Source: a virus. From it: a stretch of 64,000 nucleotides of DNA. This document shows positions 11,201 through 16,600 of this stretch, one piece after another. A program made the translations under genes and the position numbers. Under the pieces are notes generated by a model. That model worked only from the letters and a program-made list of their open reading frames with translations, made no database searches and was not told the origin of the DNA. The DNA lies in the IMG/VR virus record IMGVR_UViG_3300045974_000102, positions 1 to 64,000 of that record; one strand, 5' to 3'. The stretch's first letter is position 1. Every line of letters begins with the position of its first letter.

Positions 11201-12040
11201 GCCGCTACTGTATTGAGTGCCATAGGTAGTGCCAAGTGCACCTGGCATACTTTCCCAGAAAGCTAGTCCATGATTTGTCCAGTTGCTATGGTCTGCATCA
11301 ATAATCAAATTGCTTGAAACGCCCACTTTTAGATTTGTCTCGTCGGCTCCTACTGTAGCATAATCTGCTGCCTTTCCACTACCAGGCGCTATGTCAGCCC
11401 ATTTTAAGTAAGACCCTGATGCCATTGTAATGTTAGCTTTTATGTCTAGTGCTTTAGTTGCTGGATTGTATCTTAGATATGAAGGTGCACCTGAGCCACA
11501 GATATTAAGTTCACCTGTATTTAAATCCCATGCAACACCTGATGTTGTTGGGCTGCCTGATACCCAGCTTTGAGAATGTAATGTGCCAGCTACCATATCA
11601 TCAGCATTAAGCACGCCTCTGACTTTCATTGTGGTTCCATCCCATACTAAGTAGCTATTGCCACCAGCACCAGATGCACCTATGAAACCAAAGGTGCCAT
11701 TAGCCTTTATATAGCTGGTGTAGCTAGTCCCATCATAGAACCCAACTCCACGCTCGCCCATTACAAAGCCAGCATTTCCACTTACTGCTGGCCATCCAGA
11801 TGGGTATAAAGTGTTCCACTGTAAATTACCACGACTGTCAAACTTAGTCAGGCCACTTACGGCAGCTGTCGTTAATATCGCCAGCTGCCAACTTGTGCCA
11901 TTGTAATATTTAAGGAGTGGTGGAGACTGACTTGTGTCTAACCAAGTCTGGTTTAATACAGCAGAGGCTGGTTGTGTGTTCGAGACAAAAGTATAGTCAT
12001 TGTAGTCTACTATTGAAATAGAGCCGATACCTAAAGCCAT
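8285..12040 (-). CDS. Tail fibre / receptor-binding protein with several carbohydrate-binding-like beta-sandwich modules
   Basis: G/S/T/N-rich; WLDTS..PPLLKYYNGTSW fibre motif; ITANQITAGTI spiral repeats; three CBM-like domains. Confidence 0.8.
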   Translation of the reverse strand: MALGIGSISIVDYNDYTFVSNTQPASAVLNQTWLDTSQSPPLLKYYNGTSWQLAILTTAAVSGLTKFDSRGNLQWNTLYPSGWPAVSGNAGFVMGERGVGFYDGTSYTSYIKANGTFGFIGASGAGGNSYLVWDGTTMKVRGVLNADDMVAGTLHSQSWVSGSPTTSGVAWDLNTGELNICGSGAPSYLRYNPATKALDIKANITMASGSYLKWADIAPGSGKAADYATVGADETNLKVGVSSNLIIDADHSNWTNHGLAFWESMPGALGTTYGTQYSSGYVLPPPNITPYIKHPTNTPPTTAYSAFYTEYYAVVANSWYELYAYTGARGCKVQLTLAEYNGLGGYITSTTLSIINDNEMPGGYLLSNYKKTGGFFKTNVATASIYITVAKFCTYSTSTESYLHLGPMYLGKALTGQAAAGVFSDWSPGPAGYTGQLKATVGATSGLNLENAAGDTIGDQDILNTMASYTAISAWNFSNSAEGWVFGNGSATLNLEYITLTSSGLDPIFTSPTLSINGSLYPKIRARIRRTAGSIGNWDGKIFYSTSGHGIVATYYQQMTNIASSNTWYVIEANMTSVIGGGPTNDWVTNTITSIRLDLGNQPGDVFDVDWVAIGTTVPSLWTSNTYIDASGVYTGTVVANKVTTGTLNSSIIYAGTITANQITAGTIDSKLITLSATGGECAIRAGKTDFGAGSGFILGVDFNDGQKAKFEVGNNSQGLKWDGANLSVSGNINLTTGSIIMGTPATTVVSNAATGVVLANQALVNASGAALTAKWTGITEVPYVDILNNDAATTLGFNPSFEDWPVGQTYPSGWVIWNGQAPVKETSIVRYGHNAVKFAPIGNAAEGMMSCVMFDIPMDGNTIIAGTVDVNLLSYASGTCGIKVRVYLNAASSLYTDTDVKIPSYTLNKWQRIPFVARSWPAGNAKTAAPIYGIRFFIMAAWNGPGWPEGFLRGSVVFDGFAFGFFHGSIDNQSISLTKPTGTSYRLNGGDSGLADISCAGLGITEGADRTAAALNTIITNVRGGLELGLNGWIKSASKNADGSGNGLLYGVNGFGTALFNVGDGAHGSTTNHISWNGTELEVRGKITAEDIWAGTIQAGRLTVGDLSAGIINQNAISTGKIAAEAATKPISLAANTTAVSLAGVGIWTINSITLSAADVLDVAKFYFIAEVTCEGNAEAWIENPSGVKISYIHNFGGNFLYWNTPGSTSIVAFQASPQSGTYSIKGRRATDQGSTFNSFAFMGIFGSRR

Positions 12041-12049
12041 AAGTGATCC

Positions 12050-13687: not shown

Positions 13688-13698
13688 AAGTGTTTCTC

Positions 13699-16600
13699 CT
13701 ATTCAAGTAATTCGCAAGAAAATGTTGCGGTGCCTGCAATATCTGCATCTGTTATATTTAGTGTCAGTGTCCCACTTGGATATCTGCTTATTACTGAGGC
13801 ATTCCAAGCTGCGTCTAATGTGTTATAAGGGACTGGCGATATTCTAGTCCATCTAAGTTTAATCGGATCTATTATACCAGTTACTTCAGTTTTACCTTTC
13901 CATACTCTAGCTGATAATACTGTTATGGTGCCAACCAGGTCTGTCTTTCTGAAGTTGAAACCGTTGCTAGATAAAATTCTTAAGACCCATGCTATATCAT
14001 CTTTACTAGGTATTTCTCTAGCTGGCACTCCTAGAAAACCACCATCGTCACCGCCAATCATTACGTCACCTGAAATGCGTAATATCTTATTAATAGGATC
14101 CCATCTAATTCTTGTGCCATTTCCACTGGTTGCGGCACCTAATATAAATTCTCCATTCTCCAAATCCATATATGTGCCATAGCCAGAAGTTGCCCAACTT
14201 AATGACTCTAGTGTGCCAGACCTAATATCATAGGCTGACAGTGAACCCGCTTTAATATTATCTGATGTAATTGTATTAGCTGCTATTTGGTCTGATGTAA
14301 TTGAATGAGCTTTAATACGATAGGCATCTATTGATCCTGTTGTGATATTATCTCCGCTTATAATAGTCTTCCCATAGTTGGCTACGAGAGTTCCATCAGA
14401 GGACATTGTTGCAAAGAGAATAATACCGGAGGCTGCCATTTGCGTTGTATTAAAAGCTAAGTCATTATAAGTGATATTAAGTGATGATTGTCCTTTAATC
14501 CAATAAGCAAACATTTTCCCTGTAGCTGGTGGGCTCCATGTTCCTGGTCCAATTGTGACTGTTCTGTTTACACCTGAAGGCGGAATGCCAGGTATTACAT
14601 CATACCAACTTAGTGTGCCAGTTAACCATTGTAAGTTACCACCTGAGTTCTTATAAAAATCTAAGCCAGTTCTTGTTATACCAACCATGCCTACTTCTAT
14701 TGAATTTGCTTTAATGGAGTTAGCTGCTATTACACCTCCGTTTATCTTTGTTACATCTCCTCCATCTGTCCAGCTAGTTAATTTGGACTGTCCTGATACA
14801 GCTATACTACCAGCCTGAACTAATGTTACTCCACCATCTACTGAAACTGATGCTAGTGATGCAGCATTAATTCTTTGTGCGTCAAGCGTTCCTGTTATTT
14901 TCGCTGAGCCTATATCTAAACTTAAAATCTGTGCTGTAGTTATTATTGCATTACCCATTTGCCCTGATGCAGTAATAAGTGTTCCTGCTGATAACTGCGT
15001 TGCTGTAATTGTATTAGCTTTCAGCCTATCAGCGTTTACAGTGCCAGCAGTAATATCTGTGCCGTCTATAATTGTCTTGCCATAATTTACTATAAGATTC
15101 TTTACTGCTGTGCCTTGTATGCCTGAGTAAGTTGCTATAACTAAGTTGCTAGCTATAAATGCTGTGGCTCTATTGAATGTGCTTGCTATACAATTACCAG
15201 ATGTGTCTTTAGTCCAATAGAAATATGTTGTGCCACCTGACACTGGGTAAGTGCCACTACCTGCGTAGACTGTTTGAACTATTGCATTACTTAAGTCGTC
15301 TGTATATGCTACTGAGCCTGAGCTCCATGATACCTTATCATAGTCTTTATCAAGTGTGAATGCTATACCATCGAATGTTACGTTACGACTTCCAATGCTT
15401 AATCTATTGGCTGAAATAGAGTTTGCTGCAATTGCCCCACCATTGATTTGTGTATTATTCGTTCCTCCCATCCAGTCTGATAACTGTCCACCTATTCCTA
15501 TTGATACCTGTCCTGGTAATATCTTAGTTGTTCCAGCGTTTACTGCGCTTGCTGACATAGTAAGTCGCTGCACATCTATAGTGCCTGCTGTTATCTTAGC
15601 TGCATCTAGGTTTAGTATCTTAGCGTCATCAATGGCAGCGTTAGCAATCTTGGCGTTGCTTATAGCGCCGTCTACAATAAAGGCTGAGCCTATCACTTGA
15701 TTAGCTATCGTGCTCCATTGTTTAAAGGCAAATCCAGCTATATTTCTACATATAATAAAACTATTAGCTGGCACATTTCCAGAGACAGTTACAGAACTAT
15801 ATCCTGTTGTATTTTTTGTCCAGTAAATAAATTCTTTATTTGTTGAGCTTGCTGGTACCGTGAAACCTGAACCACCAAAATATAAAGTATGAGTATTCCA
15901 TGCAGCATAACCTGATGATGGAGAATTATTAGTCCATACATCATTCTCTATTACTGGTATGCTGTTATATATACTAGATGTTTTAGCTGTAAAGTCTACG
16001 TCTGAGTATGTGACTGGACCTACATCTTTATAAACACCAGTGGACCATGCTCCTATATTATTAGATGTGTCTACTGCTCTTATGAAATACCAGTATCTTA
16101 AGCCTGCTGTTAGATCTCTATCTATATAGTTAGTTGCTGTTGGACCTACTGAGCCTATAAGTATCGCACCACTTGCTGGGACTCCTGATGAGGCACCACT
16201 TACAGATCTATAAATGTCTATCCTAAGGATATCTCTTTCTAATGGTGGATTCCAATTCAAAAATACACTTCTAAATGAAGTTTGTATTGGATTGATTGCA
16301 GCCCATGCAATACCGCTTGGTGCTATATTGTCTCCTGGAGCTTGTTGTAATATAACATCAGGCGATGTATATGGAGATCTATTCCCTAGAAAATCTATGG
16401 CCATTATTGAGAAAGAATAGTCTACTTTTGGTCTTATATAATTTAAGATGAAAGATAGCTCTGACGTTATTCCTGTCATATAGTCTGCAGAGCCACTAGC
16501 TTCTTTCCATCTATACTGATAGGTTATAGGCTTTCCTCCATCGTCTACTGCTGCCCATGAGACTGCTATCTTACTATGTGGATTGCCATATTCGTCTATC

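Follow-up and report, generated by a model that had tools for sequence, protein, structure and literature searches.

How the successive proteins of a phage tail fibre are fastened to one another when each comes from its own gene is the question raised by three consecutive genes in the DNA analysed here, the first 64 kb (64,000 nucleotides; hereafter the window) of the 115.9-kb IMG/VR virus record IMGVR_UViG_3300045974_000102, which is estimated to be 56% complete. The source virus is a large contractile-tailed phage, an uncultured jumbo myophage. For most phages of Gram-positive bacteria the fastening of multi-gene tail fibres or receptor-binding proteins (RBPs) to the tail tip is unresolved. 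The three genes, P0001, P0002 and P0003, are tandem open reading frames (ORFs) on the minus strand, as are all the segments of them described below, and we consider it likely that their products are translated separately and then joined head-to-tail into one fibre by β-strand complementation. P0001 and P0002 would each end in an immunoglobulin (Ig)-like β-sandwich that stops after strand F (here called the socket), and P0002 and P0003 would each start with about 12 residues representing strand G and, after them, a D-x-x-D linker (together the plug). In the joint, the plug would lie antiparallel beside strand F of the preceding protein, completing its sandwich. The original prediction, made from the DNA letters, had quoted the termini of the 1611-aa, 545-aa and 1251-aa proteins and a similar but continuous junction inside the second of them; all of these are present.

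P0001 (positions 13699..18534, 1611 aa) was identified from the ORF call and family matches as the proximal fibre protein with a C-terminal socket. It carries Pfam fn3 repeats and fibre-type repeats, matches the tail families PHROG 31, 32822 and 11445, and its C-terminus reads TLTLNITDADIAGTATFSCELLE before the stop. P0002 (12050..13687, 545 aa) starts with MSLAIGQITITDLNDA and ends with KWICVEDADIVGQAKFIVDVN; its PHROG match, sequence alignment and AlphaFold2 (AF2) modelling describe an adaptor of three Ig-like β-sandwich beads with an N-terminal plug and a C-terminal socket. The match to PHROG 3267, a 'tail protein' family, covers it end to end (P0002 residues 2-545 against profile positions 4-367 of 369, E 1.5e-27). 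P0003 (8285..12040, 1251 aa, ORF call) starts with MALGIGSISIVDYNDY; it has a plug at its N-terminus and a C-terminus without a socket. Its comparison with PHROG gave weak tail matches only; its first 60 aa are collinear with residues 355-400 of orf1237 of phage phiNIT1, and it is the probable distal fibre and RBP.

Socket 1, defined by alignment and hhalign, is the C-terminal Ig-like domain of P0001 (approximately residues 1514-1611, 13702..13995) and stops 5 residues past the F-strand Cys (ATFSCELLE). After the TAG stop, the sequence of junction 1 consists of an 11-nt spacer with an AGGAG ribosome-binding site (13688..13698), and the next ATG, that of P0002, is in a different frame. Plug 1, assigned by alignment and AF2, comprises P0002 residues 1-15 (MSLAIGQITITDLND; 13643..13687), a G-strand-like segment with the D-x-x-D linker that is collinear with the internal G strand and linker of the same protein. 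This internal counterpart, the continuous F-loop-G junction of bead 2 (residues 360-391, 12515..12610; ORF translation, AF2 and alignment), reads YGIFKVILVD-KEPQYLGQ-TYTMSFNVSDYLDP. Socket 2, from alignments and AF2, is bead 3 of P0002 (residues 392-545, 12053..12514); it carries an insertion of ~60 aa modelled at low confidence and stops 3 residues past strand F (AKFIVDVN). Junction 2 (12041..12052, from sequence) is a TAA stop plus a 9-nt spacer with an AAGGA ribosome-binding site, and here the next ATG, that of P0003, is in frame. Plug 2, assigned by alignment to fused proteins and by AF2, is P0003 residues 1-15 (MALGIGSISIVDYND; 11996..12040), and in the alignment it falls on the G strand that is continuous in the fused phiNIT1-type proteins described below.

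The termini resemble each other within the window. The N-termini of P0002 and P0003 are identical at 10 of the first 15 residues (pair BLASTP E 0.006), and the C-termini of P0001 and P0002 have D-A-D-I-x-G-x-A-x-F in common. When all ORFs of the 115.9-kb genome were scanned with regular expressions, P0002 and P0003 were the sole real genes with the plug motif, and P0001 and P0002 the sole ones with the socket ending; the remaining matches were short spurious ORFs. As judged from the sequences, the terminal resemblances are greater than chance. The DNA string CACTTATG.CTTTAG is also common to both junctions (12041-12049 and 13688-13698), spanning the start codon; beyond this shared string the P0002 and P0003 proteins are only ~36% identical. 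The string may be a trace of duplication or recombination at the joint.

The claim that the C-terminal Ig-like domains lack their last strand held up when they were compared with a complete paralogous domain: they align to its strands A-F and stop where strand G begins. A profile of the 17 upstream sockets (those of the window and of the other loci described below) matched the complete-domain profile with an hhalign probability of 99.1% (E 1.2e-18), the match spanning columns 5-96 of 115, that is, strands A-F, and ending just before the G-strand columns. Socket 2 and plug 2 taken together also align collinearly with bead 2, the complete paralogous domain, through the G strand and the D-x-x-D-P linker. 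These comparisons largely support the view that each gene boundary cuts inside an Ig-like domain, in the FG loop, which would leave one protein a β-strand short and start the next with a strand.

We examined the conservation of these features among relatives of the adaptor. An exhaustive HMMER search of a representative set returned 21 relatives of P0002, most of them 330-420 aa long with three Ig-like beads. The best-kept features of the family are the N-terminal GQITIxDxNDA, the xDQSDP junction between beads 2 and 3, and the C-terminal ending. The family alignment shows no variation at D12 and D15 of the plug or at D387, D390 and P391 within the internal junction; as it conserves both motifs, the N-terminal one reads as a copy of the G strand and linker inside the protein. 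The last bead lacks only strand G, and in 15 of the 16 aligned members the C-terminus falls 0-4 residues after strand F (GKxIxVxxxDVxxKAxFxVEV). The exception, the 419-aa relative P0011, has 14 extra residues past strand F (FECEVIEKEVSGYTLSKKN) that aligned on the G-strand columns; to judge from the alignment, this tail may be a self-capped socket closing a chain.

The adaptor module was found in 209 of 50,697 phage records by tblastn with family member P0009, mostly in Bacillus Herelleviridae and siphophages, with some matches in Streptococcus, Lactococcus, Enterococcus, Lactobacillus and Blautia phages. With P0002 itself as the query, tblastn against the same phage collection gave no match. 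Word-indexed homolog searches returned the query only, whether run with P0002 (near lengths) or from the family alignment (longer lengths), and scans of viral contigs with P0002 and its closest relative, P0004, gave no match. Sequence searches of the PDB yielded chance or weak Ig matches, the family profile matching no phage protein there; the weak matches to NCAM Ig domains (E 0.1-0.5) were confined to the E-F region of bead 2.

The neighbours of the adaptor were then inspected at 16 other distinct loci, giving 17 socket rows with the window. The loci came from phiNIT1, Grass, BSP38-like phages, three further IMG/VR contigs, O1205, WRP3, Tsamsa, Enterococcus phage H1, LfeInf, P1046, phiAGATE, BCPST, one Blautia phage and two Clostridia prophages in metagenome-assembled genomes (MAGs). 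At every readable locus the gene just upstream of the adaptor, which encodes Tal, a spike resembling A511 gp99, or a fibre, ends in the same socket domain of ~95 aa; this count leaves out the IMG/VR locus L008/L024, where there are no clear ORFs beside the adaptor. Seven residues (F, W, D, W, D, F, C) are invariant in the 17 domains, and in every one the distance from the Cys of the ATFxC motif to the C-terminus is 3-11 residues. The last 98 aa of P0001 are 21-37% identical to the 16 other socket domains and have all seven invariant residues, identity being 31-37% with the A511 gp99-like, IMG/VR and prophage socket domains. No Pfam family matched the socket domain at E ≤ 1. At split loci with an intact downstream fibre gene, that gene always starts with the plug motif, for example MKIITRNDITLTNVYDG, MTIVASNSLTLSNVNDG, MPNIVGTGQMTLVDMNDV, MTTVSRGEITITNVNDG, MAKAVGQFTIIDLND and MIKAIGQITIRDEND.

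The original prediction had also pointed to homologs in which the genes are fused, and such homologs exist. Junction 2 is fused into a single chain in phiNIT1, Grass, the BSP38-like phages and a fourth IMG/VR phage, and independently in phiAGATE. In the fused chains, F strand, loop and G strand run on uninterrupted by a stop, as in DVDTKATFLCETSAAVGQFTVYDITDVIVSSTEPANPVNGTIWLNTSGQPP; the fused junction reads KATFLCETSAAVGQFTVYDITDVIVSSTEPANPVNGTIWLNTSGQPP in phiNIT1 and SNLIVDVSKKAVQGRIISSGQKTLVNLNDIATSPTPPENPTDGMIWVNTSQEP in phiAGATE. The C-terminus of P0002 followed by the N-terminus of P0003 matches these fused forms column for column. In the phiNIT1-type phages and phiAGATE, the spike-like protein carries the single socket and the fused protein the single plug.

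Several features of the other loci were noted in passing. At L008 (IMGVR_UViG_3300031853_000008, 112 kb; 6508-7361 and 8389-8599), the tblastn match to the adaptor begins 360 nt upstream of the first ATG-started ORF, and the stretches beside the adaptor contain no ORFs of at least 100 aa under translation table 11; these gaps could reflect stop-codon recoding or a degraded region. In one Clostridiales MAG prophage (L026:4441-5733), a 430-aa gene with Cys-rich nuclease-like N-terminal motifs lies directly after the adaptor, at the position expected for the plug-bearing fibre gene; it may represent an insertion of the homing-endonuclease type at the joint. The adaptor and plug-bearing RBP genes of O1205, LfeInf, P1046 and Enterococcus H1 are separated by a conserved ORF of 50-57 aa (MKNKFYANVELGGEITQVSF, continuing to IEIWAE; L009:8122-8295, L013:8122-8295, L014:8122-8292 and L012:8113-8265). 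This ORF is called a helicase subunit in two records, which we judge implausible; its product might be an assembly factor for the joint, and no equivalent of it lies between P0002 and P0003 in the window.

We modelled junction 2 with single-chain AF2, in which the in-frame TAA was read as Q to serve as a natural linker, and read the models as strand assignments and predicted local distance difference test (pLDDT) scores, not as coordinates. Model 1, of 659 aa, joined the whole of P0002 to P0003 residues 1-110 and was built from a 23-row alignment (mean pLDDT 59). Its beads were predicted at pLDDT 70-85, and Foldseek matched them to tandem Ig-like arrays. The internal strands F (E360-369) and G (E378-387) were predicted at pLDDT 70-85, and the plug of P0002 itself formed a strand (E4-12, pLDDT ~77). 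Model 2 was trimmed to P0002 residues 384-545, Q, GSL and P0003 residues 1-18 (182 aa), so that the plug could pair with the socket only. In this model (predicted template modelling score 0.62), strand F (152-161, pLDDT 88) was followed by a six-residue turn and a plug strand (168-175, pLDDT ~72). A structural search against representatives matched model 2 to whole single β-sandwich domains at Z 7-9: C5 MG4 (6rpt_E), an alpha2-macroglobulin MG domain (2p9r_B), RB49 Hoc Ig domain 1 (3shs_A), and Fc-receptor-like Ig-C2 and FN3 domains. The matched range ran from about residue 4 to 177-182 and the target ranges reached the domain end; because the matches are to whole sandwiches through the last strand, the plug takes the last-strand position in the model. 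Placement of plug 2 as the last strand beside strand F of a complete β-sandwich is supportive, not decisive, being biased by the covalent tether.

Several points weigh against strand complementation. The tethered P0003 plug was disordered in model 1 (pLDDT <50) while the P0002 plug was ordered. Model 2 joins plug and socket covalently through a short natural linker, an arrangement that makes a hairpin more likely. Both models rest on shallow alignments of 17-23 rows, and their mean pLDDT values are only 59 and 66. The structural support consists of single-chain models of junction 2, junction 1 of the window being out of frame, and the evidence for the socket-plug pairing is comparative and from single-chain models. 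On that evidence the earlier interpretation as a whole is largely supported, each of its proposed checks that was run having favoured it. As to the claim that the next N-terminus supplies the missing strand, the plug is collinear with strand G and forms the last strand of model 2, while plug 2 was disordered in model 1.

Strand complementation would produce a fibre that is, in effect, a tandem Ig array cut in two FG loops. The socket of the P0001 shaft would take the plug of P0002, the socket of P0002 would take the plug of P0003, and P0003, which has no socket, would close the chain as the distal receptor-binding part. Physical docking in the order P0001, P0002, P0003 is the most likely arrangement. 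Three flexible adaptor arms would link a trimeric shaft to a trimeric tip; published work on related RBPs, in which the distal parts trimerise and the bead arrays do not (PMC9437275, PMC11406892), suggests that there are probably three such arms per trimeric fibre.

As P0002 has both a plug and a socket, its plug might instead fill its own socket, either within one chain, closing the three beads into a ring, or between copies, in which case P0002 would polymerise into a shaft of no fixed length. The result would not be a 1:1:1 chain. The plugs and sockets of the three proteins are alike enough to make such cross-fitting conceivable, and in model 1 the N-terminal strand of P0002 was ordered (E4-12, pLDDT ~77) while the P0003 plug was not; the partner of strand 4-12, however, is not readable from that model. 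Pairing within P0002 would also leave the P0001 socket and the P0003 plug without partners. In the phiNIT1-type phages and phiAGATE, moreover, the sole socket and the sole plug are on different proteins, so that any pairing there must be between proteins, and the adaptor socket in the fused phages is completed covalently by the counterpart of the P0003 plug. We believe self-complementation to be unlikely on these grounds.

The same termini could be relics of gene fission, or homology boxes that guide recombination, with other contacts holding the proteins together and the strands undocked. Module boundaries in phage fibre genes are known recombination points, and the adaptor does appear to move as a cassette. 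A 373-aa adaptor is 85-91% identical across phages of Streptococcus thermophilus (O1205), Lactococcus (WRP3, P1046) and Lactobacillus fermentum (LfeInf), its genes lying at 7001-8122 of loci L009, L010, L013 and L014. The proteins upstream of these adaptors are alike only over the 90-320 residues holding the socket, and the downstream proteins are 28-45% identical over partial lengths. Read from sequence, this pattern suggests recent exchange of the adaptor cassette across host genera, and the near identity of the cassette in phages of three genera, together with the CACTTATG.CTTTAG string common to the window junctions, speaks for recombination at these sites. A recombination box, however, would not account for a boundary that at every sampled locus interrupts a domain at its FG loop instead of separating two domains, nor for conservation at the protein level at 20-35% identity, where DNA homology is gone. 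A sandwich minus its edge strand would expose its core unless complemented, and AF2 builds the complemented domain. We therefore regard it as quite improbable that these termini serve recombination in place of docking. The mosaic pattern does fit the earlier proposal of an exchangeable distal subunit, the adaptors being nearly identical (85-91%) and the proteins downstream of them divergent (28-45%).

Twenty-two junctions elsewhere fall in frame 0, 1 or 2, with spacers of 0-120 nt and, in several, extra stops, and every junction has its own GGAGG-like ribosome-binding site and ATG. Because frames and spacers vary and each junction has its own ribosome-binding site and ATG, P0001-P0003 are best read as separate proteins and not as products of read-through. 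A reading in which stop read-through or frameshifting joins the three ORFs during translation, so that one or two long chains result, is accordingly very hard to credit and was rejected: junction 2 of the window does lie in frame across one TAA and a 9-nt spacer, but junction 1 is out of frame and has no slippery heptamer, TAA read-through is not known as a form of recoding in tailed phages, and the frames, spacers and ribosome-binding sites of the 22 junctions speak against it.

The genes around the three fibre genes are in keeping with a contractile tail and also lie on the minus strand. Directly upstream of P0001, a gene (18555-19634, minus) encodes a 359-aa protein that has a T4 gp10 C-terminal domain (Pfam Gp10_C, E 4.8e-18). 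The short tail fibre of T4 is borne by gp10, a baseplate protein, and the 359-aa protein could be the anchor of P0001. Directly downstream, a 194-aa DUF4376 protein (7735-8319, minus; E 1.2e-8) overlaps the end of P0003 by 35 nt; DUF4376 proteins are often annotated as fibre assembly factors, and this one is probably a tail-fibre assembly or chaperone-type protein serving P0003. A lysis cassette follows downstream of the fibre genes (minus), and farther along the window are a baseplate wedge gene (34881-36086, minus), the genes of three giant proteins (37300-57348, minus) and a sheath-like gene (62050-63534, minus).

Taken beyond the window, the comparison leads to a wider proposal, to which we give somewhat better than an even chance: one plug-and-socket standard, an Ig-like domain split in the FG loop at gene boundaries, attaches RBPs to Tal, the central spike or a fibre shaft in many phages of Gram-positive-type hosts and in this jumbo myophage. 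As a conserved standard, the joint would let phages recombine their upstream shafts, three-bead adaptors and distal tips, and it would, if real, provide a sequence rule for predicting which parts of a fibre can be exchanged across phages whose hosts belong to different genera. It would explain why conservation in these otherwise fast-evolving fibre genes is highest over the N-terminal 15 residues, why adaptors and tips form mosaics across host genera, and why the same junction is fused in some phages and split in others. For annotation, it would offer a signature of which genes make one fibre and in what order; for laboratory work with phages, a defined docking peptide and its socket.

The best-known joint of this design is that of the chaperone-usher pili (Fim, Pap, Caf1, Saf), in which an Ig-like fold without its G strand is supplied with that strand by the N-terminal extension of the next subunit. 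The pilus donor strand has alternating hydrophobic residues, and the result is a non-covalent head-to-tail fibre with a specialised tip. The window sockets are likewise Ig-like folds without strand G, and the next protein's N-terminus takes the G position in the shorter single-chain model (model 2) but is disordered in the longer one. Unlike the pili, the window has three different, very large multi-domain proteins in fixed order and not one polymerising pilin, its plug runs directly into the next Ig bead, and phage assembly is cytoplasmic. We found no sequence relationship between the window proteins and chaperone-usher pilins, and no PapD-like chaperone or usher was among the tail, baseplate and lysis families returned for part of the neighbouring ORFs, for which no aimed search was made. 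By analogy, the window joint would work like donor-strand complementation without being a member of a pilus system.

In the literature searched, we found no published description of a donor-strand or strand-complementation joint in phage fibres; such a joint is also absent from what the papers on the phage 812 baseplate and on OE33PA describe. The nearest experimentally solved phage example we found is the baseplate tripod of Tuc2009, in the crystal structure of which a hairpin of BppU completes the sheet of the titin-like domain of BppA (PMC4742702). There, too, a short β element of one protein completes a small Ig-like domain of another. The BppU donor differs in being an internal or C-terminal hairpin and not a single N-terminal strand (PMC4742702), no repeated domain is split there by a gene boundary, and the proteins are not homologous to P0001-P0003.

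Closer relatives are the N-terminal Ig-like β-sandwich arrays of Streptococcus thermophilus phage RBPs (PMC9437275) and of Gp185 of Deep-Blue and Gp112 of Vp4, two Bacillus phages (PMC11406892). In these, strings of four or five non-trimerising sandwiches precede trimeric prisms, and the genes lie beside that of Tal or the central spike (PMC9437275, PMC11406892). Single proteins were modelled in these studies, which do not mention a missing strand or a split domain (PMC9437275, PMC11406892), and one of them states that it could not determine how the RBP is connected to the Dit-Tal core (PMC9437275). By tblastn, the same family is present in the Streptococcus phages O1205 and 7201 and in many Bacillus Herelleviridae. 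The window array differs in being a separate 545-aa gene in a jumbo myophage, hung on a 1611-aa fibre and not on a central spike. Should the proposed standard be correct, it would answer the RBP-tethering question left open for the Streptococcus thermophilus adhesion device (PMC9437275).

The counterpart of the window fibre in phiNIT1 would have one joint fewer. Its A511 gp99-like protein, orf691, ends in the same socket (VAITPSDVQVRATFNCTILDENLQ before the stop), and orf1237, which resembles phiEF24C gp031, starts with the plug (MSIATGQITLTDYNDA) and holds three beads. Where they align, P0002 and orf1237 are ~29% identical; P0002 has two large insertions. Unlike in the window, the adaptor and distal protein of phiNIT1 form one 1237-aa chain, junction 2 being fused.

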